Shown piece after piece: positions 6,718 through 28,828 of a DNA stretch of 63,515 nt (position 1 is its first letter; each line of letters begins with the position of its first letter). The notes under the pieces are model-generated. The model was not told the origin of the DNA, did no database searches, and saw nothing but the letters and a program-made list of their open reading frames with translations. Source of the DNA: a virus (Duplodnaviria; Caudoviricetes); IMG/VR virus record IMGVR_UViG_3300050343_000155, positions 1-63,515 of that record; one strand, 5' to 3'. A program made the translations under genes and the position numbers.

Positions 6718-6758
6718 ATTAAAAAAATTTAAAAATTAAAAACGGACTACTAAGATAG

Positions 6759-7259
6759 TCAATAGTCCTTAAAATACTTCCACACCCTGTACGTCTCTAA
6801 AGACTTGAGGTCCAACAAGTTAAGAGTTGTTATGACATCCTCTCGATCTTTTCGAGTGTACTTTTTCTTGTATGAATCTCGCTTGTGCGACACAAATACA
6901 TCTTCCACATTCTCCTCGCAGTAAGACACTAGGTCTTCGCGATCAACGATACTGAATCCACCCTCTTCTGGCATGTCGAATGCTATAATTTTGGCACCCC
7001 CATACATCCATCCTGGGTTTCCAGCTACGTTTTTAAACTCACACCAAATCTCATCTGGTAGGTTATTGCCTTTTACATCTACTCCCCACCTTCCTTCTAC
7101 CTCTTCGTGTTGCATCCAGAAATCAACATGCATATGCACATCGTCTTTTCTACCTGACTTTACAACTTGAAGTCCTAGGTCTCTTGCCGCACGTTCAAAG
7201 CGTACTTCAGCTACCCTTCCTGTTGAGAACGAATATCGTTTCCTGTTTTGACTTTGCAT
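6759..7259 (-). CDS. Putative PD-(D/E)XK nuclease-like protein
   Basis: HVDFW...GVDVKG motif; start reassigned to MQSQNRK. Confidence 0.5.
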   Translation of the reverse strand: MQSQNRKRYSFSTGRVAEVRFERAARDLGLQVVKSGRKDDVHMHVDFWMQHEEVEGRWGVDVKGNNLPDEIWCEFKNVAGNPGWMYGGAKIIAFDMPEEGGFSIVDREDLVSYCEENVEDVFVSHKRDSYKKKYTRKDREDVITTLNLLDLKSLETYRVWKYFKDY

Positions 7260-7491
7260 CGTGGTTTGCTTCAGAGTGTTCAAACGAAGCCTCCTTAACA
7301 AGGTCAAGCTCCTGATTCATCATTACGCGAATACCCGCAACCATGTTGGCTACGTTCCCAGAATCCTCACGGGGATCTCCGTTCTCATCGAATAGCTCTT
7401 CAAAAAACTCATCAATGAGTTCATGAAGCCTTACGGTGGCTATCCTGTAGCTAGCTCCTAGCTGTTCCTTTGTTAACTCGTTTTTTGCCAT
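7207..7491 (-). CDS. Hypothetical protein
   Basis: 94-aa ORF overlapping its operon neighbours. Confidence 0.6.
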   Translation of the reverse strand: MAKNELTKEQLGASYRIATVRLHELIDEFFEELFDENGDPREDSGNVANMVAGIRVMMNQELDLVKEASFEHSEANHDAKSKQETIFVLNRKGS

Positions 7492-7939
7492 ATCCTAGTT
7501 CTTTAAGTTTCACTATAGCCTGCTCAATCTGGTGTTTGTTTTTACAGATGAACAAAGCGGGGACTGGTTCTCCTGAGTCTATCAAGTGCTTAAGGAACAG
7601 CTTCCAACGCATCGGGAAGTCATGATGCGAAGGAGTGTACCCTTTGGTTTCAATAATCCATTCTCCGTTTGGTCCTACGAAGTCTGGAGTGTATTTAATG
7701 GGAAGGACTATCGCACCGCTACGATCCGACAAGTCTTTCCGCTTGGTAGTCATCTTCAAGTAAGTTCCTGGATACCTAAACTTCTCTACGAGCATGTACT
7801 CGTGAGTTTCATAGGTGAAGTTGATCTTATGCTCAGACAATAAGTCTGCACAGGTCTTCTCTAGTCCGCTTTTATACTTACCTAAATTGCGCTTTTTTGC
7901 TGATTTGCGCTTAGGGGTCCCGCTTTTCTGTCGTTTCAC
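7451..7939 (-). CDS. T7 endonuclease I-like Holliday junction resolvase
   Basis: YKSGLE, YTPDF and IETKG motifs. Confidence 0.8.
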   Translation of the reverse strand: MKRQKSGTPKRKSAKKRNLGKYKSGLEKTCADLLSEHKINFTYETHEYMLVEKFRYPGTYLKMTTKRKDLSDRSGAIVLPIKYTPDFVGPNGEWIIETKGYTPSHHDFPMRWKLFLKHLIDSGEPVPALFICKNKHQIEQAIVKLKELGYGKKRVNKGTARS

Positions 7940-7956
7940 TCAGGCTAAGATACAGC

Positions 7957-9774
7957 CTAAGTGTCTAAAAACGAAGAGTTCATGGGAAAAACAAAAGGTT
8001 CTTGCTTGCCCCCCTCCAAATCAACAGACTCAAACATCATTCTCTGAGTCTTGAAAGCACGGAAACCAGTTCTAGACGTGTTCATTTCAAATCTAAATGG
8101 TTCTTCAAGCGGGGTAGGCTCTCCGCCTGTCTCTACGTCACGCACCTTACGTACATGAAACTCTGTAATCTTACGCTCAGATGGTGTTGGGTGTTGCACC
8201 TTTCTGTGTATAGTCAAGAACGAGTCAGCTCGATTAACGAACTTACCTCCACCCTCAGTGTCCTCAGCGTATGGAGCTACAGGTAGGCCGTCCTCACCCT
8301 TAATCCGCTGTGAAGCAGTAACAGCATGCATGTTCAACCACACTGCGATGTTGTTTGCTGTAGAGAATGTAAGGAACTCAGAGGCTGCCTCGTAGTGATA
8401 CTCGTGTACACCGATACCCGACTTACCCATGTCAAGCTTGAGGCTGTTGTATGGGTCTACAAACACAGCGTCAACCTCTTGCTGCTTCATTACCTTCTCA
8501 AGGAACACGATGATATCTGAGTAACTGTATACCTGTTTGTTACTGATTACAGTAAAGTACTTGCCTACCCATTCGTATGCCTTCTTGCGCTCCATGTAGT
8601 TCATAGAGGAGATGGGTTTGTTTAGGGCGAATTGTATAAGGGTCATCTTCAATGAAGCTGTTCGGTTCTCTGATGAGTATACAACCCACTTCCACCCATG
8701 CCGCACGGTAGCGTTGACCATGAGGTACAGAGCCATTGTAGTCTTACCTACATTACTATGCCCATTTATGATAGTGAACTCTCGCTTGTACCTGAAGTAC
8801 TGATCGAGATCCTTGTCACCCGTGTCCAAGCCTACAGGTATGCGTCCATTAGCGTAATCATCAATCCACCTGAAGTCCTCATCGTCCGATGATATGAACG
8901 ACATGTCCCCGTCATTAACGAGCATCTCACGCTGAGCCTTCTTCTCGTCGTCGATGGTATCTCGGATAGGGTCTTGCTTACCCTTTTCGATGGCGTCTCG
9001 TATGGTGTTTACGGTATGCTTCTCGTCATCTACATCACGCTTGAGTATCTCACGAGTAAGTACACGGACTACCTCGTCCTCTTCCATACGTCCAGCGGCT
9101 ACATAGCCACCACACAGCCTAGCAGCACGAAGCAGGGTAGCATGTTTCTCCCCGTCATCGCACTGACGTATCATACGTGCAGCTAGATTTAACTTTAAGT
9201 AATCCGTGTAAACACCTGATTGTGAGACAGCTACCTGTGATTCACTCTTCTCTGTAGCGAACGCACCGAAGGTAGATGATTCATCCTTGATGATGATTTC
9301 TGGGTCGTATGACTCGAAGCATGCGCGAGACTCATTGATGCCTGACTCGTCTACCTCTAGGTCATACTGCTTGCCGAAGTATGTACGTAACGCTCGGAAG
9401 TGATCGCGGTGCCGCTCAGGGTGAGTTATCTTGACTAACGCCTTAAGCCCATCACCCGAAGGAGAAACCCAACAGCTGTACACATACGGGTCCGTACTGA
9501 GAAGCGCTTTGGATGCTGTAACATCAATATGATCGAAGTCAAGAACAATGTATCCGCTATGTTTTTCAATTGATTGGTCTTTTCTGTCGCCAAACTCACC
9601 GCTGAATAGTACAACGGGTAGGCTTTTTTTGAAATCCTTTTCTCCACCACGAACAGCTTCAATCGTTGGCGCAGAAGTCCCCTCCTGTATTCTTTTGAGG
9701 GCAGTCACAATCGGAATCACATGGGCATCCGCCTTTGACTTTTTGTACAGGTCTTTGTATATCGTTACGTTCAT
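7957..9774 (-). CDS. Primase-helicase: N-terminal BT4734/VirE_N-like primase domain plus C-terminal DnaB/SF4 helicase
   Basis: N-terminal KKSLP, LDFDH and SPSGDGLK; C-terminal Walker A GHSNVGKT, VFVDPYN and HVRKVR. Confidence 0.8.
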   Translation of the reverse strand: MNVTIYKDLYKKSKADAHVIPIVTALKRIQEGTSAPTIEAVRGGEKDFKKSLPVVLFSGEFGDRKDQSIEKHSGYIVLDFDHIDVTASKALLSTDPYVYSCWVSPSGDGLKALVKITHPERHRDHFRALRTYFGKQYDLEVDESGINESRACFESYDPEIIIKDESSTFGAFATEKSESQVAVSQSGVYTDYLKLNLAARMIRQCDDGEKHATLLRAARLCGGYVAAGRMEEDEVVRVLTREILKRDVDDEKHTVNTIRDAIEKGKQDPIRDTIDDEKKAQREMLVNDGDMSFISSDDEDFRWIDDYANGRIPVGLDTGDKDLDQYFRYKREFTIINGHSNVGKTTMALYLMVNATVRHGWKWVVYSSENRTASLKMTLIQFALNKPISSMNYMERKKAYEWVGKYFTVISNKQVYSYSDIIVFLEKVMKQQEVDAVFVDPYNSLKLDMGKSGIGVHEYHYEAASEFLTFSTANNIAVWLNMHAVTASQRIKGEDGLPVAPYAEDTEGGGKFVNRADSFLTIHRKVQHPTPSERKITEFHVRKVRDVETGGEPTPLEEPFRFEMNTSRTGFRAFKTQRMMFESVDLEGGKQEPFVFPMNSSFLDT

Positions 9775-9979
9775 CCGAGTATTTGTATTCGAGTAGTAGA
9801 TTTAAATAGTGGATAGCCTTGAGGACATCCTCCTTGCCGTTCTTGAATTCGTGTCGGCATACGTATTTAATCACATTCCCCTCTATGAAGGGTATGTCAT
9901 TTGCTGCTATGAAGTCAGTGGGCTGAATCTTCATTTCCTTGTAGTGCTTACCGCCTACTTGTTTGTCGCTATGTTTCAT
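9659..9979 (-). CDS. DUF3310-like protein (T7 gp1.7-like nucleotide kinase family)
   Basis: QVGGKHYK, GNVIKYVCR and KNGKEDVLKAIHYL motifs. Confidence 0.75.
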   Translation of the reverse strand: MKHSDKQVGGKHYKEMKIQPTDFIAANDIPFIEGNVIKYVCRHEFKNGKEDVLKAIHYLNLLLEYKYSDERNDIQRPVQKVKGGCPCDSDCDCPQKNTGGDFCAND

Positions 9980-10217
9980 GTGGTATTGATGTTGTTCCAA
10001 CTTGTTTTATCGAAGTTATGGAATCAATCACAATTGTCTTGTTCTTAGCCTTCGCGGTAAACAATTCACGCTCAAGTCTTGACATTGTTTTTCCATCCTT
10101 CTTCATGATGTCCTCTGGGTTGTCATACTGGCTTACGATCCACACACTTCTGGTTTGTGGTCGCTTGTTCTTTATCGTGATGACCTTGGCGGTCATGGAG
10201 TATATAGGTCGTCCCAT
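9969..10217 (-). CDS. Hypothetical protein
   Basis: ORF with start reassigned to MGRPIYS, just downstream of the terminator hairpin. Confidence 0.55.
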   Translation of the reverse strand: MGRPIYSMTAKVITIKNKRPQTRSVWIVSQYDNPEDIMKKDGKTMSRLERELFTAKAKNKTIVIDSITSIKQVGTTSIPHET

Positions 10218-10228
10218 AATGTTATAGG

Positions 10229-10260
10229 GAAGAAAAGGGGCAGAGCTTTCGCCCCACCCC
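10229..10260 (-). terminator. Intrinsic terminator after the SSB gene
   Basis: Minus strand reads GGGGTGGGGC-GAAA-GCTCTGCCCC followed by TTTTCTT. Confidence 0.7.
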
Positions 10261-10281
10261 GTTCCCTGATAAAACAACCTG

Positions 10282-10584
10282 TTAGAACGGAAGGTCAGAA
10301 GACCCTTCGGATTTAGTTGTTGTGCGACGCTCTTGCGCAGCTTCACTATTAGGATCCCACACACTCAGGCATGGTTTGCCATTCTTCGACATGAATAGTC
10401 GAAATCTAACGTTGCCGCCCTGACCCTGTGCATCACGCTTGGTGGTGTACTGATCGATGGCATCCTTAAGCTCGTTATCCTTGAGACGGAAAGACCATCC
10501 CATTAACTCGCCATTGTCATTGTAGCTAGGCTCATCTGCCCAACCTACTAGTACGCTCTCGTACTTCTTTGTTTGTTCACTCAT
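10282..10584 (-). CDS. Putative single-stranded DNA-binding protein
   Basis: 100 aa, aromatic beta-rich core, C-terminal SDLPF tail, located in the recombination module. Confidence 0.6.
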   Translation of the reverse strand: MSEQTKKYESVLVGWADEPSYNDNGELMGWSFRLKDNELKDAIDQYTTKRDAQGQGGNVRFRLFMSKNGKPCLSVWDPNSEAAQERRTTTKSEGSSDLPF

Positions 10585-10673
10585 GTTAATGAATTATTAA
10601 AATAAAGGTTATTAAAAATAAAGAATAAACTCCTAAGGCTAAGCAGCCGTTTATCAATCGGTTAATTGTTGAC

Positions 10674-11456
10674 TTATACTTCATAGTTTAGGTAGTCTGT
10701 TTGGGGGTTATAGTCTTGCTCCAGAAAGCTTGTGATACGCTTGAGTGCATCATGGAACTTCATCTCTCCTGTAAACAGGGTGGAGTCAGAGCATTTAACG
10801 AGGGCAGGAAGGTACGGGTAAGTCTTCTCTTGTACAACCCAATAGAAATCTTTTATACCAAACACCTCTGTGTAGATGTAAGCTTGGATGTCATATGAGA
10901 AGTCCTTGATAGCATACCGAAACTTCTCTGAGCTACGTGCTGACTTACTATCGCTAATGAATCCATCGCCTAAGCAGTCGAGAAATCCCTTCACTTGTAC
11001 GCCATGTAGTTCTTCGAGGAATCCTACCTGATAATCACCCTTGAGGTGAGAGTCAAGCAAACCACATGTAGCTAGTCTGTCGATCATGTCGTTAGCCATC
11101 TTCCACTCATCGTGTGATACGATTGACTTTCCATCCTCAGCTGCTTCCTCTTTGATTTCCTTAAGCTTAGCCTTGTATTCAGCAGTAAGTGTAGGTTTCT
11201 TGGAGGCTTGAGCTTTCTCTGATAACGTTGTTACGATAGCAGATGGGGACATGACCGTGTACTTCTCGAATGCTTTGTCTCGTTCGAACAGCAGCATATC
11301 GTACATAGTACCGAACTCTAGTGCGTCTGATTTGTATTTGACTTCTCCCTTCATGTAGCGATCGAACTGAGCCATATCGCCTAGGGCTTGCTTGAGAGAC
11401 GAGTACGACAAGTGAGACTTGCCGTACCGCTCCATTAATTTATCTGATATATTCAT
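10674..11456 (-). CDS. RecE/exonuclease VIII-like PD-(D/E)XK exonuclease
   Basis: LSYSSLK, ALEFGT, KGFLDC...ISDSKS, YDIQAYIY and VVQEKTYPY motifs. Confidence 0.8.
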   Translation of the reverse strand: MNISDKLMERYGKSHLSYSSLKQALGDMAQFDRYMKGEVKYKSDALEFGTMYDMLLFERDKAFEKYTVMSPSAIVTTLSEKAQASKKPTLTAEYKAKLKEIKEEAAEDGKSIVSHDEWKMANDMIDRLATCGLLDSHLKGDYQVGFLEELHGVQVKGFLDCLGDGFISDSKSARSSEKFRYAIKDFSYDIQAYIYTEVFGIKDFYWVVQEKTYPYLPALVKCSDSTLFTGEMKFHDALKRITSFLEQDYNPQTDYLNYEV

Positions 11457-11761
11457 TGGTCTTCGTATAATGGTGTGCCGTCTTCAAGCATGTACTCATA
11501 GGTTTCTATCTCAGCCCAGTGAGTGGGCTTGCCAGCAGTACACCAGAAGGTTTTACCCTTGCTGTTAATGTGATACTCTGCAATGTCCACATCACCGAGA
11601 AAGTCCTTATGCTTGATGAAGTAAAGCCCAGTACACATAGGCACTTCGGTGTCATTGTCTACCCAACGCTTGGGCATGTTAGAGTTCAGACACTGTGTTC
11701 GAAACCTATGGAACGTAGCTATGTTAGTTAGCTTGCGGTTCTGTACTGGATACTTGTTCAT
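11453..11761 (-). CDS. Hypothetical protein (PTHWA motif, DUF551-like)
   Basis: ORF with 4-nt overlaps on both sides. Confidence 0.55.
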   Translation of the reverse strand: MNKYPVQNRKLTNIATFHRFRTQCLNSNMPKRWVDNDTEVPMCTGLYFIKHKDFLGDVDIAEYHINSKGKTFWCTAGKPTHWAEIETYEYMLEDGTPLYEDQ

Positions 11762-12333
11762 CGTACAAACTTCTGTAAGCCAGACATTTGCTTATCGGTA
11801 AGGCTACCTCCGTACTTACCTACGATAGACTCATATGCTTTCTTCTTGTCGGTCTGCGACTTGATGTAAGCAACAGCCTTGTCCATGATGTTTTCAGGCG
11901 GGTCAGTATCAAACTTCTCCTGCACTTTCTTGATCATCTTATCAGCCTTGGTGGGTGCGGCAGGCGCAGCTGTGTCTTGCTTAGCTATAGCATCAGAAAC
12001 CTCGTTAGCCGAAGCGATTGATGTGTCAATACCAATACCGAGCATAGCCAATGCACGACCGATAGCTGATGTCTCGCAGTTCTCTACGTAGCTAGTCTTG
12101 TTGATGTTGCTACTGCCTTGCACTTCATGTGCATGACCTACTGATATGATGCGATTGTCAGCATCTACGATCGACGCCTTGCATACACATTGAGCTTCGT
12201 CTAGCACAGTAAACTCTGTGATAAGGCTCCAGTTCTTGTACTGCTCCTCCTGTCGGAAGAACTTGATTCGTTCGTTGACTTCAACGTACTGCTTGCCACG
12301 AATGTTCGTGGTCTTGAATTTGTAATTACTCAT
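11758..12333 (-). CDS. Putative ssDNA-annealing protein (Rad52/Sak-like recombinase)
   Basis: GKQYVEVNERI and ENCETSAIGRALAMLGIG motifs; clustered with the exonuclease and SSB. Confidence 0.6.
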   Translation of the reverse strand: MSNYKFKTTNIRGKQYVEVNERIKFFRQEEQYKNWSLITEFTVLDEAQCVCKASIVDADNRIISVGHAHEVQGSSNINKTSYVENCETSAIGRALAMLGIGIDTSIASANEVSDAIAKQDTAAPAAPTKADKMIKKVQEKFDTDPPENIMDKAVAYIKSQTDKKKAYESIVGKYGGSLTDKQMSGLQKFVR

Positions 12334-12698
12334 ACGAGTTCTTGTTTTAGATTTTCAGCTAGACCCTCTAGCCTTTTGATTTGGATTCTAATTGTTGTAA
12401 GCTTCTCTTCGATGCTGTTATATCGGAGATGTACATTGCATAGCCTTACAGCTAGCAGGTACTTGTCTTCATACCCATCCCATGAGAACAAGTTGGCTTC
12501 GTGATGACGAGAGTGGTGTACTACTGTGCTGTGGTCTCTGTCAAAGCTTTTGCCTGCTTCCGTCTTGGTCATGTGCTGAGCCATAGCAACCATCAGTGCG
12601 GCTCGTGCCTGAACTTGTGGTGCCTTTCTAGATGTGTTGGGGGTGAGGTCGAGGGTAGCATAGTACTCCTCTTGTAGCCTTTTGATGTCATCATTCAT
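12330..12698 (-). CDS. DnaA C-terminal-like HTH DNA-binding protein
   Basis: AGKSFDRDHSTVVH matches the DnaA domain IV signature GxxFxRDHsTVxH. Confidence 0.7.
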   Translation of the reverse strand: MNDDIKRLQEEYYATLDLTPNTSRKAPQVQARAALMVAMAQHMTKTEAGKSFDRDHSTVVHHSRHHEANLFSWDGYEDKYLLAVRLCNVHLRYNSIEEKLTTIRIQIKRLEGLAENLKQELV

Positions 12699-12740
12699 TG
12701 GATTTGCTGGTTCAAATTTAAAGTTTAATTGTTATTAATG

Positions 12741-12844
12741 CAAGGAAAGGAGAGACTTTGTTTCTCAACGCTCTCAATGTTGTGCTGTCTCCAGCACACG
12801 GCGCGTTACAGGATCTCCCTGCACACCATCCGTCTCTCCCCTTG
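12741..12844 (-). ncRNA. Candidate structured RNA (multibranch, GAGA loops)
   Basis: Closing stem GGAGAGAC/GTCTCTCC, inner GTGCTG-GAGA-CAGCAC, CAGG/CCTG and AACGC/GCGTT. Confidence 0.45.
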
Positions 12845-13159
12845 TCAGCGTTCTGACAATGCTATGTCGTAACTGCTGAGTGTTTCGTAAAATTTAACGT
12901 AGTGATACATAGACCTTGACACCTCTGTGAGGCTTTTAGCTACGCGCTCCACGGATATGCTGTCTTCTTTGAGTAAGTCTTCGACTAAACTATCCGCGAT
13001 ATCAGGGAACTGAGGTAGATACTCTGATACATCTTTGCTTAGCCATACGTCAATGTCTGCCTCAAGTATATCGTCGCAAGCATACATAGCTGCTAGACGT
13101 TCTGCATTAGACGGGTCTTTGTTTTCCAATACGATTTGAATTGCTTGTTGGTTAGTCAT
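12845..13159 (-). CDS. Hypothetical protein
   Basis: 104-aa ORF in the early/middle arm. Confidence 0.6.
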   Translation of the reverse strand: MTNQQAIQIVLENKDPSNAERLAAMYACDDILEADIDVWLSKDVSEYLPQFPDIADSLVEDLLKEDSISVERVAKSLTEVSRSMYHYVKFYETLSSYDIALSER

Positions 13160-13272
13160 ATGTAATATTTAATACCTGCTGTATGTTGATGCCTGTCTTC
13201 TCAGCGTATGAACCAGACGGGGTGTAGTATGTCTTGCCGTCTCGCTCATAGCTCCAGAGCTGTTGTGTAATT

Positions 13273-13455
13273 TCAGAATCCGTATTCCATCCCATCTTCG
13301 TATAGCTTTTTAAGTTTAATGTCTAGTGTTCCGTCGTAGTAGTCAGCTTCGGGGGATCTCATCACCTCCATGAATTCCATGAACAGCTTACGCCCATCGT
13401 TCTTCGTGTGTTCAGCTGACTGATTTGTATATATTGATATCCTTGGCTCGCTCAT
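13273..13455 (-). CDS. Hypothetical protein
   Basis: 60-aa ORF co-oriented with its neighbours. Confidence 0.5.
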   Translation of the reverse strand: MSEPRISIYTNQSAEHTKNDGRKLFMEFMEVMRSPEADYYDGTLDIKLKKLYEDGMEYGF

Positions 13456-13491
13456 TTGTTTCCGTTTTTAAAGAACCATCCAAACTTGTTA

Positions 13492-13926
13492 TTAAACCAA
13501 GTCGGAAGTTCCACACTCATAAGCGTCACCAACCACCCATAGAGTCCTGTCATTTGTAAATAGTATTTCGTATTCGTTACCGCTAACGATGTTGTTGTAT
13601 CCGTCAGTCCAGTTAGGACTTTGACGCGGGTTGAACTTGATTCGGTAGTCTTGTTGGTTTGGCTTGAGCCGATTGACCTCCAATACTTGGACAGCCTCGC
13701 ACTCTATCCATGCACACACAGTCTTGTTAGCACCGTCGTGAATCTTCTTAGCCGCTGTTGGTTGTACGCTTAGCTTACAGCCTAGCATAGCTAGCTGATT
13801 GTCTTGTGGGTCTACGTAGCTCACCACTTCTTTAGCACCAGTACCATCGCCTGTATTTAGCTTGGATTTGATTTGCCAGTGCATGAAATGTTCGCCTCGT
13901 CCGAGGTGGAATCTAACTTTGTACAT
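13492..13926 (-). CDS. Hypothetical protein
   Basis: 144-aa ORF preceded by the AAAATCTC leader motif. Confidence 0.65.
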   Translation of the reverse strand: MYKVRFHLGRGEHFMHWQIKSKLNTGDGTGAKEVVSYVDPQDNQLAMLGCKLSVQPTAAKKIHDGANKTVCAWIECEAVQVLEVNRLKPNQQDYRIKFNPRQSPNWTDGYNNIVSGNEYEILFTNDRTLWVVGDAYECGTSDLV

Positions 13927-14029
13927 GAGATTTTTGATTTATAGTTTTCGTTTACTTGATTGAATGTGTACTCCGCCCACTCATTGAAGTCCTGTGTTGG
14001 GTTGACGTGTACACTTGATCGGACACACA

Positions 14030-15645: not shown

Positions 15646-15680
15646 TAGATTGAGATTTTGATTTGGCAACATTGCCGCTA

Positions 15681-16987: not shown

Positions 16988-17041
16988 TGTGTTATGTGTT
17001 TGAGATTTTGAATTAATAAGATTGGCTTTGTTTATCCCTTC

Positions 17042-17881: not shown

Positions 17882-17917
17882 GTAATTGAGATTTTGATTT
17901 TGACGTTGTTGTCGATA

Positions 17918-17949
17918 CAAAGATAAGGGACAGAATCCATTAATCCAAA
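17918..17949 (-). promoter_or_regulatory. Bacteroidota sigma70 promoter (early)
   Basis: Minus strand TTTG-20 nt-TATCTTTG. Confidence 0.75.
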
Positions 17950-17957
17950 TTTATTTT

Positions 17958-18820: not shown

Positions 18821-19232
18821 TATCTTTTTCTATGAAAACACTTTTGCTTGCCTCTACATCGTAGTAGGCATCTTCGTTGCGCTCCTTGCATAATGCATAG
18901 GCAGAACGAGAGTGAGTAACCTTTTCCGATACGTCGAAGACGATACATTCCTTGTCAATCCAAGTGCCTACGGCATATGAGACTCCGCTAAGTTTGGATT
19001 CCTTGAGTAGCTTGCGCACCTCGGTCGCATACTTGAGCCAGATGGTGTGGAACGTGTTGGCATCGCAGATATCCAAAGGGATTTTGGTTTCTCCTGACAG
19101 ACCGCCTACCATGAAGCCCCTATAAGGTACTTCAAAGTCGTATCCGTCTGATGTGATTAGGGATGAGCCACCATCCATGAGGGTTCTGCCATAAGCAAGG
19201 CGAACAGCGTGTGTTGAGAACATTGTATTCAT
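18801..19232 (-). CDS. Hypothetical early protein
   Basis: Start reassigned to MNTMFST, downstream of the tRNA-like element. Confidence 0.6.
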   Translation of the reverse strand: MNTMFSTHAVRLAYGRTLMDGGSSLITSDGYDFEVPYRGFMVGGLSGETKIPLDICDANTFHTIWLKYATEVRKLLKESKLSGVSYAVGTWIDKECIVFDVSEKVTHSRSAYALCKERNEDAYYDVEASKSVFIEKDNDNAEA

Positions 19233-19254
19233 ATTGAATAGATTAAAAAAATTA

Positions 19255-19336
19255 GAGCGGCTCAGGGACTCGAACCCTGCGACACTGACCTCCATCCCTG
19301 TTCCCCTCGCGATGGGTACTTAGGTAGGTAGCCGCT
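19255..19336 (-). ncRNA. tRNA-like element (acceptor stem and T-arm, no canonical D or anticodon arm)
   Basis: Perfect 7-bp AGCGGCT/AGCCGCT stem; T-arm CAGGG-TTCGAGT-CCCTG; interior ACCT/AGGT and CCATC/GATGG. Confidence 0.7.
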
Positions 19337-19348
19337 GATAGTGATAAG

Positions 19349-19711
19349 TTACTCGACTACATCGAGCCATTTAGAGTAAGGGAAGTTGTTTCCCCCAAGC
19401 AGGTAAATGCAGTACGAGCCATTGCGACTTTCGTAAACAGTCTGCCCTTCGAAACTGAATTCAGTTTCTGTGCCTACCCACACCGCATACTCGTCCCCTG
19501 TTCGAGGTGAGATAGCTTTGATGTACTTACTACCAGAGGTAGTCTTGAATACCTCGAATGGTTCTCCTTGAACCACAAGGTTCTCGTCTGCGTCGATCCC
19601 GCTTGACGTGTCGAAGCCTACACCATTGCCACCGATGGTTTTTGCTTGGAAGGTTTGACCAAAGGTTGCAGACGCCATTGAGATGGCAAGGATGAAAAAG
19701 AAGTTTTTCAT
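19349..19711 (-). CDS. Putative exported early protein
   Basis: N-terminal signal peptide MKNFFFILAISMASATFG followed by a beta-rich body. Confidence 0.65.
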   Translation of the reverse strand: MKNFFFILAISMASATFGQTFQAKTIGGNGVGFDTSSGIDADENLVVQGEPFEVFKTTSGSKYIKAISPRTGDEYAVWVGTETEFSFEGQTVYESRNGSYCIYLLGGNNFPYSKWLDVVE

Positions 19712-19731
19712 AATAAAGAAATAAATAAATT

Positions 19732-19784
19732 GAAACTGACACTACAACGTAGTGTTTCGCCTACTTAAGGCTCATCAGAGTTCC
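19732..19784 (-). ncRNA. Hammerhead ribozyme (type I)
   Basis: Minus strand: GGAACT [CTGATGA] GCCT-TAAGT-AGGC [GAAA] CACTAC-GTT-GTAGTG [TC] AGTTTC. All core nucleotides and three stems are present; GUC cleavage is predicted between 19738 and 19737. Confidence 0.9.
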
Positions 19785-19914
19785 TAACCTGCGGACTCAT
19801 CGTCATCATCCGCTTGAGTGATTGTTTGCTTTTCCCCTTCAGGGGAGGAATCGTCCTCAAATTGAGCCGAACACAAGGACGCTATCGCAAGAGCACCCAT
19901 CAGTAGTAACGCTC

Positions 19915-20082
19915 TCATTTGGAGGAGGAGTTTACGAGGTCTTCAAGGCGCATCTGCTCATCGCAGGAGAGTGCATCGAAGCTTGCAGTGCAAGTGAATG
20001 CAGAGCCAAGGAGTTGAACATCATTGAAGAGAGCCGAAGCCATTTGCGCTTTTTTGCGCTGTGTATCTGTGCTGTTGAGCAT
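19915..20082 (-). CDS. Small hypothetical early protein
   Basis: Start reassigned to MLNSTDT, after the promoter and CAAAATCTCAA leader. Confidence 0.5.
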   Translation of the reverse strand: MLNSTDTQRKKAQMASALFNDVQLLGSAFTCTASFDALSCDEQMRLEDLVNSSSK

Positions 20083-20119
20083 AGGATTGAGATTTTGAGT
20101 TTGGCTGAATTGCCGACTG

Positions 20120-20151
20120 CAAAGATAGAACATACTTTCCATCTTTCCAAA
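20120..20151 (-). promoter_or_regulatory. Bacteroidota sigma70 promoter (early)
   Basis: Minus strand TTTG-20 nt-TATCTTTG. Confidence 0.75.
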
Positions 20152-20379
20152 TTTATTTTTCTACCCTTTAGGGTAATTAGTCAATGAAGAGAGTATCGTA
20201 ATGAGGCATATCCGTAGTCCAGCGGACAGCATGGTGCGCTTCCTCCACGGGGTCGAACACGTAGTCGCTCGAAGGAACTTCCTTGAGGAGACACCATTCA
20301 CTCCCATCTTTGAGGAGTTGCCCAGCCGCCCAACTCTGAGCGTCTACAAGCTAGGAAAGCACATCTTGGTGCGGAATTC

Positions 20380-21630
20380 TGATTCCCCAAGGGGGAAGAT
20401 AAAAGAGTAAATTGACATAAATCTATGATTTAAAGGGTTTTATAACTAATGAAATGATAACTACGTTATCAGAATGGAGCAGTGTCAGCAATCAAAGCTT
20501 CAGCTTCAAGGCGCTCCGCCTCTATCTGAGCAGAGCGGAGTCGAGCCATCGCTTCCTGAGGAGTCTCACCCTCTAAGAGGGTAAGCATTTGCTGCTTCTT
20601 ACGAACCTTTGGTTCGACTACTGGAACCTCTTTACGAGGTTCGAACGGCTGTGCCTCGCCACCGTCGGCGGCGTTGACGACTTTGGTCTTCTTGACCTTG
20701 CCAACCTTGTTGGCAGTTGAGGTCTTAGCTTGAGTTAACTCAAGACCAGCTTCTGACGTCCTCTTAGGACGACGGACAGCCTTTGACTTGCTCTTCTTCG
20801 AAGAGCGTCTCTCTGCTGTTTGCAGAGCAAACAACTCCTTGTTCAGAACGGAACGTTCTGCTCTCTTCATCTTCTTACCAGAAGATAGAAGGGCTTCGAT
20901 TTCCGACTTTCGGTCTGACTCCTTAGAAGTCAAGGACTTCTTAGAGGACTTCGACTTAGAAGTCTTAGAAGACTTCGACTTAGAAGCCTTAGAAGGCTTC
21001 TTCTTAGCCTCCTTCTTAGGAGGCTCTGGAGTTGGAACATCGATGGAATCGATGAAAGAACTTAGAGAAGCCATAGCTTCACTAAGGTTAGACTTCTTCT
21101 CCTCAGAAGGAGAATAAACAAAGCTGTTAACAGCTTTTTTCAAGGTCTTTACCAAGACCTGCTTTTGTTCGAATGTCTTTGACATTGTTGAGAGATTTGA
21201 GTTTCCTCAAGCTGGTCGACTTCCAAAACCAACTTAAGAGATAAAGAGTAAATGAAGAAGTCATAAGACTCCTTCTTCATATACTCTATCTCTACTCCAT
21301 TCAACAACGGTATTAGCTAGCTAATACTCCTACGTTGACTACCAATGACGATCCCTTAAGGGATTCAATGCGTTGGAGGAAAGCCCTCAGTTTCAGCCTC
21401 TTGAGCATCTCTTCTTGAAGAGATAGTTAACCTTCAGTATTGAAGGTTGTTATCTAACCTAAGAGGTTAGGGGGAGGATTGACAGCGGTCTCTCTTGAAC
21501 TACGTAGTAGTTTAGCTTCAAGCTGTTTCTAGCCAATCGGTCTTATTCCTTTGATTAGTAGTTAGTTAACTACAATCAACTCTTAACTTCGTAGAAGTTA
21601 GCTACTGACTTGGTTAGCCTAAAGGCTAAA
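20380..21630. repeat. Dense array of short, non-identical inverted repeats (micro-hairpins)
   Basis: Dozens of 5-9 bp stems with 0-4 nt loops, e.g. 20456-20470, 20790-20806, 20844-20860, 21120-21137, 21498-21512 and 21584-21600. Confidence 0.85.
20469..21185 (-). CDS. Lys/Ser-rich basic protein, first gene of the early arm
   Basis: 238-aa open frame, A-rich leader resembling the other early leaders, low-complexity KSKSSK tracts. Confidence 0.65.
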   Translation of the reverse strand: MSKTFEQKQVLVKTLKKAVNSFVYSPSEEKKSNLSEAMASLSSFIDSIDVPTPEPPKKEAKKKPSKASKSKSSKTSKSKSSKKSLTSKESDRKSEIEALLSSGKKMKRAERSVLNKELFALQTAERRSSKKSKSKAVRRPKRTSEAGLELTQAKTSTANKVGKVKKTKVVNAADGGEAQPFEPRKEVPVVEPKVRKKQQMLTLLEGETPQEAMARLRSAQIEAERLEAEALIADTAPF

Positions 21631-22071
21631 AGTTCTGGCTAAAACCCCCTTGCATTATGCCTACGGGGTTTACGAGATTCGTTTCGGGTTCGAGGACACA
21701 ACGTTCATACGTATAAAAGAATCCCCAAGATCTGTATTACAGAGCCCTTTTTAAAGGCGGCTTATCAACTGAGTTATCAACGCGCTACCACTATATACTG
21801 TTTAAAAGGCTGTCACTTAATGACTTATAGGGTTTCGTTAAAGCATGTTGCTGACTTGACTTTGTAAGAAAAAAGTTGTAACTTCGCCAAAGCTTCACAG
21901 CGATAAGCTTCATATGATGTTTTAAACCTACGAGGCTGTCTTTAGGATTACTTATGTAAGTAATAAAACAGTAGCTACGGAGCGTCACTCAAACTAATCA
22001 AGTTGTAAAGGCGCAAAAACTGTCTTCATTCTCGAGAAGGGATCAAGAAATATATCAAACCTAAAAAGTAG

Positions 22072-22079
22072 TATATTTG
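22072..22079 (+). promoter_or_regulatory. Bacteroidota -7 promoter element, first of a series on the late arm
   Basis: TATATTTG. The same TAnnTTTG element occurs at 23473, 24904, 28835, 34872, 43673, 44798, 49384, 55287 and 57492, each just before a gene start. Confidence 0.75.
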
Positions 22080-22083
22080 CTTT

Positions 22084-22719
22084 ATGAGACCGACTAACAA
22101 AAAAGAACTAGGCTTAGCTAAGTCTGCTAAAGGAGGGCAGGGAGCTTCACGAATGGAGGACCTGCTAGAAAAGCTTTCTGATTACAAGAAAAGCCAGTAC
22201 GGAAACAAGTACAAAGCGGGTGGTAAGTTTCCAGATCTAACTGGTGACGGAAAGGTCACTATGGCTGACATTCTTAAAGGTAGAGGAGTTAAGTCTGGTA
22301 AGTTCGAACAAGGCGGCGAAGTAAAAGGCGATGGATACAGCATTAAGATCGCAGGACAATACGCCGTAGGGTCTATTAAGACAATCCCTGATTCTGGTCA
22401 ACAGTACGTTTCAATGGAGCTACCTGACGGAAAGGTTGTACCTGTGTTCGGAGACTGGGAGAGCTATGGTAATCCTAACAGAGAAGGATTGATTGAAGAC
22501 ATGGATTATAGGATCTTCCCATTGGGAGACGGAACCTATTCACTAGACACTGGGGAGATGGAGAGCGAAATGATGAGGGACGACAGCAGGAAAGTTGCTA
22601 TGGAAGCTCAGGGCGGCCAGGGAGCATCAAGAATGGAAGACCTTATGGAAAAGCTTAGCGACTACAAAGGAATGGGACAGTCTCCAAACGGAAGAATGCG
22701 ACCATATAAGCGACAATGA
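22084..22719 (+). CDS. Hypothetical protein with an internal 21-aa duplication and an EF-hand/dockerin-like motif
   Basis: GGQGASRMEDL(L/M)EKLSDYK twice; FPDLTGDGKVTMADIL. Confidence 0.7.
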   Translation: MRPTNKKELGLAKSAKGGQGASRMEDLLEKLSDYKKSQYGNKYKAGGKFPDLTGDGKVTMADILKGRGVKSGKFEQGGEVKGDGYSIKIAGQYAVGSIKTIPDSGQQYVSMELPDGKVVPVFGDWESYGNPNREGLIEDMDYRIFPLGDGTYSLDTGEMESEMMRDDSRKVAMEAQGGQGASRMEDLMEKLSDYKGMGQSPNGRMRPYKRQ

Positions 22720-22934
22720 GAAAAGTAACAGACCCCAAAAAAAAGCTTGATAGTTATTCTGGGTGGACGACTGAAGCTAAAACGGCTAAAGAAGCTATGG
22801 CATTAGCCAGGGCAAAATCTCATAATATGACAGATAGGCTAGGGCCAACCACTGGAAGAGCCAAGCATAAGTTAGTTGCTATTACGGACCCAAAGACCAA
22901 GAAAACCTTCTATAGGGTTTATTCTAACAGGTAG
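22716..22934 (+). CDS. Small basic hypothetical protein
   Basis: 4-nt overlap with the upstream gene. Confidence 0.55.
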   Translation: MRKVTDPKKKLDSYSGWTTEAKTAKEAMALARAKSHNMTDRLGPTTGRAKHKLVAITDPKTKKTFYRVYSNR

Positions 22935-23009
22935 TGGGTAGTAAAAACTACTTCAACCCTAGGCTTAAGCGAATTAACCCTGCGTATATTGCAGAGAAAA
23001 ATAAATTCA

Positions 23010-23471
23010 ATGAGGTTAAGCAAAAATCTAACGCTAAAAGAAGTGGTGAAGTCAAACACCGCGACAAGAAAAGGGATTGACAACACCCCAGATAAGTGGA
23101 CCGTACACAACTTACAGGCCGTAGCGGACCATATCTTTCAGCCAGTGCGCGATCACTTCGGTGTACCCATCGGGGTTACCTCTGGATTTAGATCAAAAGA
23201 ACTAAACAAGGCGATAGGGGGGAGTAAATACTCTCAGCATATGATTGGGGAGGCCATTGATATAGACGCCGACATGTATGGGAAGGTGACTAACTCAGAG
23301 ATATTCGATTTCATAAAGAAGAACCTAGAGTGGGATCAGATGATCTGGGAGTTCGGGGATGACGAGAACCCTGCCTGGGTACACGTATCATTTAAAGAAG
23401 GCGGGAAAAACAGAAAACAACTCAAGAGAGCGTACCGAGACAGCAAGGGAGTTTATTATAAAGTGATTTAA
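23010..23471 (+). CDS. Peptidase M15A-family protein (putative endolysin)
   Basis: SGFRS..LN.AIGGS..SQH..GEAID and WVHVS zinc-peptidase motifs. Confidence 0.85.
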   Translation: MRLSKNLTLKEVVKSNTATRKGIDNTPDKWTVHNLQAVADHIFQPVRDHFGVPIGVTSGFRSKELNKAIGGSKYSQHMIGEAIDIDADMYGKVTNSEIFDFIKKNLEWDQMIWEFGDDENPAWVHVSFKEGGKNRKQLKRAYRDSKGVYYKVI

Positions 23472-23484
23472 CTATCTTTGCTCC

Positions 23485-24474
23485 ATGTTAGGATTAGGAG
23501 CAAACAAAACGGGAGCGTTAAATGTTGAGAGCGCAAACCCCACTATAGGTTTTGCTGTAGTGACGACAGCAGACACACCAACAGCTTCTTCGTCGGGAAC
23601 AGCAACCCTAAGTGGATCCTATACTGGATCAGGTGTAACTGAGGTAGGATTTGATTTTGGGGTTAATGTGGCTGGCTTCAGTGAGGTAACAGGTACTGAC
23701 AGTTCAGGTACTATTACAGCAAATGTATCAAATCTTTCAAGTCTTACTGAATACAAATACAGGGCATACGCTAAAAACTCACGAGGAAAAGCCGTGGGAT
23801 CCATTCAGACGTTTACTTCTGCTGAAGTAATAGCTGCTGCTGGGTCTCCATTCCATAACAGTTACGGAAACACACCCCTTTACGACTTTGAATTTAACTC
23901 TACCAACGAAATTTACGACTTTGTTTCGGATTTTACTGGTGGCAACCAATTTGCCGATATATCTCGTATTGCATCTATAACCGATGAAAATGGGGCAACT
24001 AGACAGAACGTTATGAAGGTACAAGTCTCTAATACTGGAGTGTTTGGATACCACTACGCTCATAGCCCTAACACCGAACTAGAAACCGTATGGTATCAAG
24101 GAAGCAACATTTATTACAAGAGTTATGCTGTTGAGATGTATGTTTTTATTCCCTCCGCTAACTCTCACATAAACACCATCGGACCATTTCAGTATGGTCT
24201 GGGCGCAGAGCGCTCGTTTACAAACACTTCTTTGAACAACAGCACCATTTCAGAGTATGGGGCCTCTGATGCGGGATCATGGAAAAGGGTTTTGTATGGC
24301 ACCGAAGATGACTTTACCACCGAGTTTGGACTACGAACCAGAGGCGGTGGCGGCGACGTTTCCAGTACTTACTTTGGCTTCGGCATCAGTACCAATGACC
24401 AGTCGGCTCCTGGCGATATAATTTACGTTTCGGACATAAAAATATACGCAAGAGAAACCACGGTTTCTTCTTAA
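23485..24474 (+). CDS. Putative virion protein with a fibronectin-III-like domain
   Basis: NLSSLTEYKYRAYAKNSRG is FN3-like; MLGLG N-terminus; beta-sandwich-like C-terminus. Confidence 0.6.
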   Translation: MLGLGANKTGALNVESANPTIGFAVVTTADTPTASSSGTATLSGSYTGSGVTEVGFDFGVNVAGFSEVTGTDSSGTITANVSNLSSLTEYKYRAYAKNSRGKAVGSIQTFTSAEVIAAAGSPFHNSYGNTPLYDFEFNSTNEIYDFVSDFTGGNQFADISRIASITDENGATRQNVMKVQVSNTGVFGYHYAHSPNTELETVWYQGSNIYYKSYAVEMYVFIPSANSHINTIGPFQYGLGAERSFTNTSLNNSTISEYGASDAGSWKRVLYGTEDDFTTEFGLRTRGGGGDVSSTYFGFGISTNDQSAPGDIIYVSDIKIYARETTVSS

Positions 24475-26411: not shown

Positions 26412-26488
26412 GCCCTCGTAGCTCAGCTGGATAGAGCAACAGCCTTCTAAGCTGTGGGTCCTAGGTTCGAGTCCTAGCGGGGGTACCA
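26412..26488 (+). tRNA. tRNA-Arg(UCU)
   Basis: GCCCTCG/CGGGGGT acceptor, D-arm GCTCAGCTGGATAGAGC, anticodon loop CTTCTAA, T-loop TTCGAGT and an encoded CCA. Confidence 0.95.
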
Positions 26489-26503: not shown

Positions 26504-26692
26504 ATGCCTGATCTTATTTGCCAGAAATGTAAAGCAGAGAAATCTGTGAGAAGCCTCACTATGAAGTTTAAAAACGGTAGTGTTTACTACCCTGAAGGCC
26601 AATGCGAATGTGGTGAACAAATGGAGATTAAAAACCCTAAAGAAGGTGTACCTTCGCTGGGGAGAATGAACTCACACGGACAGAGTTATTGA
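26504..26692 (+). CDS. Small zinc-ribbon protein
   Basis: CQKC...CECG. Confidence 0.6.
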   Translation: MPDLICQKCKAEKSVRSLTMKFKNGSVYYPEGQCECGEQMEIKNPKEGVPSLGRMNSHGQSY

Positions 26693-28828
26693 TGTCTAGT
26701 TTAATCGACATAAAAGGTTATGAAGCTAAGGGGATTAAGATCGACCCTAACGGTACAGAAGGAGAAACTATCGAGCTCCACGGGTTACTCGTGGTACTAC
26801 CGAAGAAACCGCGCAAATCGGAAATTCTCTTCCATAACCAACCAAAGAAGTTGCAGCTGTGGAAACGCATTCCTATGCCAGAGGAGATGCGTAGGATACG
26901 CAGTATGGATGAGTGGTTCGAAAAGCCTGCCGAGTTTCGGAACAAGTTTCGTTCTTACATCGAACAAGAGTTTCAGCGTAGGCGTGACGGTGTATGGTTT
27001 TACAATAATGGGGAACCTACGTATATTACAGGGAGACACTATATGTTTCTACAATGGTCTAAAATTGATATCGGATACCCATCATACCTTGCTTTCCAAA
27101 AAGACATCTTTACTCACATGGCTGCTTGTGAAGCTGATCCTCGTTGTTTCGGTCAGCTTTATACTAAGTGCCGTCGTTCTGGCTACACTAATGTATGCTC
27201 TGCTGTCCTGGTGGACGAAGCTAGTCAAGTTAAAGAGAAGCTTCTTGGCATACAGTCGAAGACTGGTAAAGACTCGCAGGAGAACATATTCATGAAGAAG
27301 GTGGTTGCGATCTTTCGTAGCTACCCATTCTTCTTCAAGCCAATCCAGGACGGTACCACAAACCCTCGTATGGAGCTGGCGTTTCGTGAACCATCTAAGC
27401 GTATCACGAAAAACAACAAGACTTCTCAGATTGGTGACGCCCTTAACTCGGTTATAAACTGGAAGAACACCACCAATAACGCATATGACGGCGAGAAGCT
27501 GCACATGCTGTACCTCGATGAGGCTGGTAAGTGGGAAAAACCCACTGACATCAGGGAGGCCTGGAGGATTGAACGTACTTGCTTGATTGTAGGTAAGAGA
27601 GTAGTTGGTAAAGCCCTTGTGGGGAGTACGGTAAACCCTATGAACAAAGGGGGCGAAGAGTATAGAGAATTGTGGGCTGACTCTGACCCCAACGAAAGAA
27701 ACCAGAACGGAAGAACTAGGTCTGGACTGTACAGAATATTCATTCCAGCCTATGACGCGCTTTGGAGGGCTTTTTCGATATTTACGGTAATGCTGTTGTT
27801 GAGGACCCCTCCCAAAGCACACACATACAGGGTATAGACGGGGAGGTCCTATCGATCAAGGCAGCAAGACCTATCTCAAGAACGAGCGCAGCTCTTTTAA
27901 GAATGACCCCTCTGAGCTAAATGAGATTATTAGGCAGTTCCCTTTCACTGAGGACGAAGCGTTTAGAGATAGTATCGAGGGCAGTCTATTTAATATAGGT
28001 AAGATCTACCAACAAATAGAGTTTAATGAAGATATGTTTCCTAATCCAGTAGTAAAGGGTAACTTCATATGGAGAAAGAAAGACGAAGAGGTTGTGTTCT
28101 CTCCAGATCCAAATGGTAGGTTTAGGGTATCCTGGATGCCACCTGATCATCTAAGAAATCAGAAAAAAGACGAGAGAGGGAAAAAGATAGCCCCTAACGG
28201 GCATGTCGGTGTTGGAGGGGTCGATTCGTATGACTTAGACGCTACAGTTGACGGAAGGGGCTCTAAAGGCGCTCTACACATGTACAATAAGTTCAGCATG
28301 GATGCCCCTGCTAATATGTTCGTAGTGGAATACGCTTCTCGTCCTGACCTAGCTAGCATCTTTTATGAGGATGTCTTGATGTGTGCTTTCTTTTACGGGT
28401 ATCCTTTACTTGTAGAGAACAATAAGTACGGTATCGTAAGGTACTTTGAATCAAGAGGTTACGACGGTTACTTAATGGACCGACCTGACTTCCTTAAGAC
28501 AGGAAACTCCTCGGTGAATGTAAGAACCAAGGGAATACCATCTAACTCACAGGATGTGATACAGTCTCACGCCCAGGCTATCGAGGCATACATACACGAT
28601 CACGTAGGCATAAAGGCTGAGACTGAGGAGTTTGGTAACATGTACTTCAACCGAACTCTAGAGGATTGGATTGCATATAAGATAGATAAGCGTACTAAGT
28701 TTGACTTGACTATTAGTTCTGGTCTAGCGCTTCTAGGTGCTCAGAAAGCAAAGAAAGAAAAGATTGTATCCGACTTCAAAGACAAGAAGTTTTTCAGGAC
28801 TCACAAGCCAAAAGCTTGGCACTTCTAG
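26692..28828 (+). CDS. terL: Terminase large subunit (crAss-like), interrupted by two apparent frameshifts at ~27757-27850
   Basis: KCRRSGYT (Walker A-like), YLDEAGKW (Walker B), GSTVN and nuclease GGVDSYD...VENNK. The bridging frames read LEGFFDIYG and IRQFPFTEDEAFRD. Confidence 0.85.

Follow-up and report, generated by a model that had tools for sequence, protein, structure and literature searches.

The stretch of DNA analyzed here (hereafter the window; 63,515 nucleotides, nt) is the whole of the IMG/VR virus record IMGVR_UViG_3300050343_000155, which is rated complete. Between about 19450 and 21700 it harbors a dense array of short, mutually different DNA hairpins, running through a gene, P0001, and its untranslated leader. 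The genes of the phage are arranged in two divergent arms. The minus-strand arm, whose genes extend from 21185 down to 4897, includes a ribonucleotide reductase, a primase/helicase, an exonuclease-VIII-like protein, a protein matching Phage_endo_I and many small open reading frames (ORFs); the plus-strand arm begins at 22084 and carries an M15 peptidase, the terminase, the portal, tail fibres, large virion proteins, a giant ORF and a holin. The array is located at the head of the minus-strand replication/nucleotide-metabolism arm and adjoins the divergent intergenic region of 900 nt. On the basis of its gene content, the minus-strand arm may be regarded as the "early" one, and the replication and nucleotide-metabolism genes found there agree with an earlier note on this DNA, made from the sequence alone, which had placed the array at the head of the early arm. 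The parts of the region are the following, with the evidence for each in brackets:

19450-20468, minus strand: thinning tail of the array over the small ORFs 19349-19711 and 19915-20142, where hairpins make up 17% of the bases versus 2.4% genome-wide (hairpin counts)

20455-20471, minus strand: hairpin TGATAAC-GTA-GTTATCA across the stop codon of P0001, followed by a T-rich run (sequence, hairpin list)

20469-21185, minus strand: gene P0001, 238 amino acids (aa), with 19 hairpins having stems of at least 6 base pairs (bp) (translation, homologues, synonymous shuffles, covariation)

21186-21700, minus strand: untranslated leader of the first gene, about 500 nt, almost entirely made up of back-to-back short hairpins (hairpin list, shuffles, conservation, DNA fold)

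21239-21293, 21310-21327, 21351-21364, 21407-21424 and 21429-21448, minus strand: examples of leader hairpins (hairpin list)

21454-21470, 21498-21512, 21558-21573, 21584-21600 and 21614-21629, minus strand: further examples of leader hairpins (hairpin list)

21721-21739, minus strand: conserved motif TAATACAGATCTTGGGGAT, with one exact copy in the window (alignment of relatives)

21745-22030, no strand assigned: non-coding hub between the divergent arms, with two DnaA-box-like words and one covarying hairpin (conservation, alignment)

22072-22079, plus strand: TATATTTG, a match to the Bacteroidota -7 promoter word (5 nt ahead of the ATG at 22084, first plus-arm gene)

Hairpins were counted as maximal perfect inverted repeats with a loop of 0-5 nt and a stem of at least 5, 6 or 7 bp, using 250 sliding segments of 1250 nt. 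The region 20380-21630 contains 47 hairpins with stems of at least 5 bp, versus a mean of 8.7 (standard deviation 5.8) over the window, and represents the maximum of all 250 segments. The density that the earlier note had described as unmatched elsewhere in the window is thus borne out, and all 12 of the inverted repeats that it quoted lie where it had placed them. The same region holds 32 of the window's 140 stems of at least 6 bp and 25 of its 58 stems of at least 7 bp. Hairpins with stems of at least 6 bp cover 47% of the bases in the gene (20469-21185), 33% in 21186-21640 and 2.4% elsewhere. The array extends leftward beyond the limits originally assigned to it, the density being raised as far as about 19450, and the median centre-to-centre spacing of its hairpins is 29.5 nt. 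In the phage and its relatives, such an array comprises in total about 40-60 mutually different short inverted repeats over about 1.3-2.2 kilobases (kb).

The gene contains 30, 19 and 16 hairpins at the three stem thresholds (at least 5, 6 and 7 bp, respectively). Shuffling of its synonymous codons leaves 8.8, 3.2 and 1.2 hairpins, codon permutation 4.7, 1.3 and 0.35, and dinucleotide shuffling 5.4, 1.5 and 0.4; none of the 500 shuffles of any of the three kinds attains the observed counts, the first of them being the codon-preserving comparison that the earlier note had proposed. Since synonymous shuffles destroy the signal, the selection does not act on the protein. In the leader (21186-21640), 14, 9 and 8 hairpins were counted, versus 3.2, 0.9 and 0.3 in dinucleotide shuffles (0 of 500 attain the observed values), and both of its strands, taken as DNA, fold much more stably than shuffled sequence (z scores of -6.7 and -5.9). 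The right part of the intergenic region (21641-22083) shows no enrichment, its count being attained by 82-96 of 500 shuffles. A 24-nt coding repeat, present in three copies at 20939-21010, accounts for a few of the hairpins in 20925-21025, and about 16 of the gene's stems of at least 6 bp fall outside that stretch; it is the sole family of direct repeats in the array region, where no long repeats were found.

The evolution of the hairpins was followed in two alignments, one of seven sequences for the gene, in which the structure was given by the window's own hairpins, and one of 14 sequences for the leader, in which it consisted of the pairs present in at least four sequences. In the gene alignment, 77.6% of the cells pair, versus 32-44% when the partners are slid, and 22 pairs are changed on both sides, versus 8.9 ± 2.2 in shuffled alignments (0 of 500) and 4-9 in slid ones. 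In the leader alignment, 76.2% of the cells pair (29-43% with slid partners), and doubly changed cells number 106, versus 45 ± 5.6 in shuffled alignments (0 of 500) and 22-56 in slid ones. According to these alignments, the hairpins are maintained at fixed sites across lineages, though their stems share almost no sequence. Compensatory change may even have a cost for the protein; as an example, the replacement of GAACC..GGTTC by GAGCC..GGCTC (GAA/GTT to GAG/GCT) changes a valine into an alanine.

The same block was found at loci collected through the portal, through the first plus-arm gene and through the P0001 family. In 27 of the 31 P0001-centred loci, at least four hairpins (stem of at least 6 bp), typically 7-9, lie in the first 250 nt of the gene, so that the related genomes, on which the earlier note had suggested repeating the count, turn out to be hairpin-rich as well. 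The P0001-centred loci have 3-8 hairpins per 250 nt across the 500 nt upstream of the gene and mostly 0-1 in the flanks, and downstream of the gene the density in the relatives drops to background within 1-1.5 kb. The four most distant loci (L121-L124) have 0-2 hairpins. For 23 of the 27 distinct homologous genes, none of 200 synonymous shuffles attains the observed count. Whole-genome scans revealed a single array per genome, adjoining the hub (at 34.0-35.5 kb in genome G002), and merely a weak rise of hairpins beside the hub in the distant genome G001. The array was not seen in the first 50 kb of each of two distant named relatives (NC_055853.1 and MW202828.1), where the maximum is 4-5 hairpins per 500 nt.

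The geometry of the hairpins was analyzed on a sample of 400 hairpins from eight genomes, and that of the triloops on a set of 157 triloops from ten representative genomes. The loops are mostly of 2-4 nt, with a mode at 3 nt (160/400) followed by 2 nt (85/400), and the stems are of 5-9 bp, none of the 400 reaching 10 bp. The pair closing the loop is 5'-pyrimidine..purine-3' in 75% of the cases within the array, versus 49% outside it, and is C..G or T..A in at least 141 of the 148 listed triloops. The commonest triloop motif is C-GAA-G (26/157), in line with the C-GNA-G hairpins that had been pointed out at first; 49 of the 157 triloops read C-GNA-G on one of the two strands, the remainder having other loops. 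The 2-nt loops are mostly TaaA, TttA, CttG and CaaG, and it is known that two-residue DNA loops require a pyrimidine..purine closure. Moreover, d(GNA) DNA triloops are described as very stable, with a strong dependence on the closing pair, in an excerpt of PMC3201870.

A rival explanation, in which the array has no function at all, can be evaluated at this point. Intrastrand template switching (quasi-palindrome correction) in a region that is often single-stranded might generate perfect palindromes and keep them as a by-product of mutation. The stems are indeed strictly Watson-Crick, wobble pairs not being tolerated, and new insertions already carry hairpins, as in the extra segment of locus L082; correction of one arm by the other would, besides, look like compensatory change. 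However, the positions are kept across relatives with almost no shared stem sequence, the stem length is sharply limited to 5-9 bp over the 400 hairpins, and both loop and closing pair obey stability rules. In addition, the process would have to be restricted to one place of 1.5-2.5 kb per genome and to override the purifying selection on a conserved protein. On balance, a purely mutational origin appears quite unlikely.

The mismatches allow the level of selection to be approached. At conserved pair positions, the non-Watson-Crick cells include 148 G:T and 168 A:C in the gene (23 sequences) and 82 G:T and 101 A:C in the leader (24 sequences), and the mismatches within extended stems are three G:T, four A:C and 21 others. 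A functional RNA would be expected to contain many more G:U; since G:U is not above A:C, the selection does not act on RNA. Such a symmetric mismatch spectrum favors a situation in which both strands are free at once, as in a cruciform or an opened bubble, and speaks against a one-strand RNA, an R-loop or a resected tail; the hairpins might thus be used when both strands are free. Taken together, these data point to selection on a DNA-level, strand-symmetric self-complementarity rather than on RNA or protein. The same reading, DNA-level over RNA-level structure, had been suggested in the earlier note, and it fits the lack of an excess of G:U over A:C and the loops of 2-3 nt with pyrimidine..purine closure.

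A structure of the first early transcript, acting on the stability of the messenger RNA, blocking Rho loading or hiding from RNA-guided defences, would nonetheless find some support in the extension of the array, which matches an apparent single transcription unit composed of the leader, the gene and the stop-codon hairpin with its T-run (this hairpin, at 20455-20471, and the T-run possibly mark where the first transcription unit ends). Covariation such as that of the non-coding leader is, besides, the classic signature of RNA, and, as stated in an excerpt of PMC13575424, type III CRISPR (clustered regularly interspaced short palindromic repeats) systems favor early-expressed phage genes. However, G:U on the sense strand does not exceed A:C in either of the counts given above or in the leader at a stricter threshold (6 versus 30), many loops are of 0-2 nt, and no Rfam family is matched at its gathering score (best 20.3 bits versus 37). 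A role at the RNA level is, therefore, judged improbable. Intrinsic terminators, in which a T-run follows a G+C-rich stem, were also considered for the array and rejected: most of its hairpins have no T-run, and 8 terminator-like sites occur in 19000-22300, versus 3.5 ± 1.9 in shuffled sequences. Contigs from RNA libraries match 22070-23152 exactly; the array is covered by no RNA-library contig, an absence that carries no weight as evidence.

The product of P0001 is a basic, Lys/Ser-rich protein with conserved N- and C-terminal parts and a Lys/Ser/Pro/Ala-rich linker of variable length. Homologues are present in related contigs, and their conserved termini imply that the hairpins overlie a coding sequence under purifying selection. 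The protein has no match in Pfam or PHROG and none by tblastn versus phages, and no DNA-binding domain was detected by the Pfam, PHROG and tblastn searches. An AlphaFold2 model (23 sequences) predicts, with low confidence (pLDDT 69, pTM 0.26), helical hairpins and a disordered stretch at residues 51-83. It might be proposed that the array binds a structure-specific protein, possibly P0001 itself, the gene and its landing pad forming a module for autoregulation or for seeding the coating of the genome. In 27 of the 31 loci the P0001 gene lies at the centre of the array, the protein is basic and partly disordered, and all the hairpin sequences differ, so that any reader must recognize shape and not sequence; histone-H1-like tails prefer cruciform DNA, and the linker of P0001 recalls them. 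On the other hand, P0001 has no detectable DNA-binding domain and a model with a pTM of only 0.26, and codons that favor hairpins might by themselves have produced the Lys-rich linker as a by-product (AAGCC-GAA-GGCTT, for instance, corresponds to KPKA). The probability that we assign to a binding array is accordingly small.

The structure of the record is relevant to the position of the array within the virion DNA. The giant ORF (57516-63515, plus strand; 2000 codons) is open at its 3' end and runs on in phase into 1-3414, for a total of about 3137 aa; since the ends of the record meet in frame inside it, the record is circularly permuted, and the points where it starts and stops do not correspond to physical ends. 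None of six records, including the present one, G001 and G002, showed end repeats in the IMG/VR data or in our own comparison. A relative in Elemovirus annotates a 3694-aa "structural protein" at the position of the giant ORF.

In the earlier note, the array was proposed to be the first-entering end of the genome. If the hub held the physical genome ends, the array would be the first 0.1-2 kb to enter the cell and, folding when resected or when end-processing helicase-nucleases unwind it, would protect the end, brake entry or exclude SSB or RecA. The order of the genes resembles that of phage N4, the divergent arms meeting at a non-coding hub, with terminase and portal lying a few kb from the start of the late arm, whose far end is occupied by a giant virion protein. 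In addition, the hub, the array or their vicinity is where several metagenomic contigs of relatives end. Comparable elements exist, namely the injection-stop region of the T5 first-step-transfer DNA, rich in palindromes and DnaA boxes (10.1101/866236, excerpt), and the Streptomyces telomeres, whose tightly packed palindromes serve 3' overhangs (PMC4513846, excerpt). Nevertheless, the record ends join in frame within the giant ORF and no end repeats exist in the six records; the contig stops are spread over various sites and fall where the sequence is variable or repeated; the density peak lies inside the gene and not at the edge of the hub; and the leading regions of T5 and N4 are 2-7 times less dense. 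Moreover, resection frees one strand, but the mismatch spectrum is strand-symmetric. A leading-end element is, on these grounds, unlikely, although slightly more probable than a mutational by-product. The contig stops were also evaluated as candidate termini: about 30 contigs of relatives start in the terminase gene, at 26670-27190, but are distributed over 500 nt, and others end within the hub or the array; all of them were read as assembly breaks at variable or repeated sequence and not as genome ends.

The hub (21745-22030) shows 66-95% DNA identity among relatives whose genes are 65-70% identical. Two words in it, at 21761-21769 and 21773-21781, resemble the DnaA-box consensus. Over 21 relatives, DnaA-box-like words with at most one mismatch number 15 in 9.45 kb of hub versus 26 in 146 kb elsewhere, that is, 1.59 versus 0.18 per kb, or about nine times as many. 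The motif at 21721-21739 immediately precedes the first array hairpins when the minus strand is read, and could be a promoter or a binding site. A hub hairpin at 21947-21964 stays in place with wholly different stems in each lineage (ATTACTTA.., GTGCGTA.., GTTTGCA..), and the hub also contains repeated ACAG/ACAA words and the invariant TTGGCGAAGTTACA; candidate functions of the block are those of an origin, a packaging signal or a small RNA. One contig of a DNA run joins 21448 to 21830, and the contig of one relative begins at 21829/21830; some strains appear to have a different cassette in part of the leader and hub (21449-21829). An iteron-type phage origin (lambda-like, inside a gene) was considered as well and discarded: it needs a repeated binding sequence, and the hairpins of the array all differ.

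As regards promoters, TATATTTG and the words of the minus arm were compared with the Bacteroidota -7 promoter word. Matches to it are located ahead of the first plus-arm gene and of several minus-arm genes, P0001 not being among them, and in the relatives words equivalent to TATATTTG abut the start codon. A two-part repeated element is found before minus-strand ORFs (20085-20159, 17885-17957, 15648-15661 and 17000-17011) and recurs in relatives; TATCTTTG and TAAATTTG, both matching the Bacteroidota -7 word, form part of it. This element is a probable host-type promoter cassette and a likely cause of assembly breaks. A scan for sigma-70 promoters returned one site versus 3.2 expected.

The nearest cultured phages, which are distant (portal identity of at most 31% over 87 records), infect Flavobacterium, Cellulophaga, Tenacibaculum and Maribacter, and a marine member of Flavobacteriia is the probable host. 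Runs of 15 studies, labelled as marine or seawater metagenomes, contain the stretch in whole or in part, and a search of phage DNA with 19000-24000 gave a single match of 65 nt. In the plus arm, the large terminase (26641-28828) is split into 26641-27837 and 27803-28828 by a +1 shift, with a 35-nt overlap, and it is a single ORF of 710-731 aa in all the 22 relatives examined, which points to a sequencing or assembly error in the record or to a defective copy. The 5' part of the terminase is overlapped (26720-27295, plus strand) by a second open frame of exactly 193 codons from stop to stop, also found in 22 of 22 relatives examined, which might represent an overlapping gene or simply result from constraint. 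A gene for a transfer RNA, tRNA-Arg(TCT), is located at 26412-26488 (plus strand), where contigs of many other organisms pile up in four of four runs, with a summed depth of 57-930. In the minus arm, 7451-7939 encodes a 162-aa protein matching Pfam Phage_endo_I, the T7 endonuclease I family (31.8 bits versus a cut-off of 29.1). T7 endonuclease I-type enzymes cut junctions and cruciforms, so the genome with the cruciform-capable array also encodes a member of a cruciform-cutting family.

Starting from the observed statistics, conservation, covariation and strand symmetry, the explanation that we prefer, with a probability of roughly 40%, is that the array is a selected, lineage-conserved, cis-acting zone of DNA structure, one that forms as the beginning of the early arm becomes supercoiled or opens up beside a control/origin hub. 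Selection would act on the Watson-Crick self-complementarity of the DNA, alike on both strands, and the codon choice of P0001, and in places its amino acids, would be bent to preserve the hairpins. The latter would form when both strands are simultaneously free; the trigger might be either cruciform extrusion under negative supercoiling, as in the hairpins of the N4 promoters, or an opened bubble beside a DnaA-box-bearing origin or early control region. The array might then serve as a structure-stabilised unwinding or supercoil-absorbing zone at the onset of infection or replication.

Several points weigh against this explanation. The formation of the hairpins in vivo, their trigger and their role are read from sequence comparison. 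Known unwinding elements are short and AT-rich, and are not arrays of 1-2 kb within a gene, and extruded cruciforms should be cut by the phage's own T7-endonuclease-I-like junction nuclease. As for covariation, one measure, "further pair types", gives no excess in the leader, where 238 of 500 shuffles attain the observed value, and just a weak one in the gene (21 of 500), and the shuffle controls overstate significance because the sequences are related. Only the mismatch spectrum speaks for the involvement of both strands, because perfect palindromes are symmetric by construction; the stricter leader count (G:T 6 versus A:C 30) could mean that the plus strand, template of the early arm, tolerates G:T, and GNA loops show a slight excess on the sense strand (42 versus 30). 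Lastly, the two DnaA-box-like words of this genome have two mismatches each, and 12 of the 21 relatives have at least one such word with at most one mismatch, while nine have none.

A bolder proposal is that the "hairpin array" represents a new class of phage cis element, in which selection for DNA structure operates at the level of single bases across more than 1 kb, even within a conserved protein-coding gene, its purpose possibly being defensive; we consider it doubtful, albeit worth pursuing. If it were correct, the first-expressed, and perhaps first-entering, DNA would fold when unwound, so that any fragments or guides that CRISPR adaptation or Argonaute-like systems derived from it would pair with themselves and be of no use; another possibility is that the folding would weaken the action of end-processing nucleases and single-strand sensors. 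Type III adaptation is reported to prefer hairpin-forming DNA and early phage genes (PMC8860593 and PMC13575424, excerpts), a preference that would make the array attractive as a decoy.

Whatever its role, the array provides a case of non-B DNA as a selected viral trait that can be tested directly. The DNA hairpins with known functions occur singly or in small groups, as in the N4 promoters, the single-strand origins of plasmids and the telomere palindromes. Here, dozens of hairpins are kept side by side, with compensatory evolution, through a leader and a conserved gene, and the trait spans a clade of abundant marine phages (27 of 31 related loci). The selection on DNA shape seems to be so strong that it governs the choice of codons, and at times the amino acids, throughout the gene. 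Candidate uses are supercoil sensing, origin opening, entry control and defence evasion, and the endonuclease-I-like gene of the phage is relevant whichever explanation holds, because such enzymes cut cruciforms. The statistic employed, local hairpin density versus synonymous shuffles, is simple and applicable to all phage genomes. No description of such an array was found in the open-access main texts searched.

The array can finally be compared with known systems. In the N4 early promoters, as described in an excerpt of PMC4496689, short hairpins extrude at physiological supercoiling; these have stems of 5-7 bp and loops of 3 nt, lie at the head of the early region, and are stable with a C:G closing pair and a G..A loop. 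The array resembles them in that C-GAA-G is its commonest triloop and its closing pairs are nearly all C..G or T..A. However, N4 has three promoters with a conserved sequence from -17 to +1, whereas the array is composed of 40-60 unrelated hairpins, many of them coding, and no polymerase was detected; furthermore, bases 1-8000 of N4 reach at most 4 hairpins per 500 nt, versus 11-14 in the array. These data bear on the hypothesis that the hairpins are N4-type promoters read by a virion-delivered RNA polymerase. The stems are of 5-9 bp and the loop mode is 3 nt, the C-GNA-G found in 49 of 157 triloops corresponds to the N4 extrusion loop rule (same excerpt), and a giant virion-type protein of about 3137 aa is encoded by the phage. 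Nevertheless, there are dozens of hairpins, inside coding sequence and with no shared sequence, and the giant protein does not resemble a polymerase in the searches performed, which could miss a very remote polymerase homologue: its halves have no PDB sequence match at E of at most 0.01, and hence none to the N4 polymerase structures (one chance-level match at E of at most 10), it contains no Pfam family and no D.D.D word, and PHROGs gave nothing on its first 2000 aa. Its language-model look-alikes are LPD ("large polyvalent protein") clusters, with LPD38 at 0.94 for the C-terminal half, to be taken as a lead only. The N4 analogy of the earlier note hence does not hold as membership, in view of the missing promoter consensus, the dozens of hairpins instead of three and the lack of a virion RNA polymerase signal, and the promoter hypothesis is very improbable.

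The injection-stop region (iss) of T5 is a conserved cis region of about 1 kb, with inverted repeats/palindromes and DnaA boxes, in DNA associated with the earliest phase of infection (10.1101/866236, excerpt). It differs from the array in being untranslated, located in the terminal repeat and built on long direct and inverted repeats with an ordered set of DnaA boxes. The array, for its part, has no direct-repeat scaffold, is more than half coding, and is accompanied by at most two DnaA-box-like words, which are degenerate and lie in the neighboring hub. Bases 1-14000 of T5 reach at most 6 hairpins per 500 nt, versus 11-14 in the array.

The palindromes of the Streptomyces telomeres have a spacing of about 25 nt and GNA-type loops, and the median spacing in the array, 29.5 nt, is similar. 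They also share with it, according to an excerpt of PMC4513846, the tight packing of short palindromes that fold in single-stranded DNA. However, the telomeres have a few palindromes in about 200 nt at a physical end, where they serve protein-primed end patching, whereas in the array dozens of them extend across 1.3-2.2 kb. Neither a terminal protein nor a protein-primed polymerase turned up among the annotated ORFs searched, many small ORFs being outside that search. Telomeres apart, the array differs from each of the known families in at least one of the defining features tested, and its hairpin density is the highest among the known elements compared, being 2-7 times that of the T5 injection-stop region or of the N4 early region.

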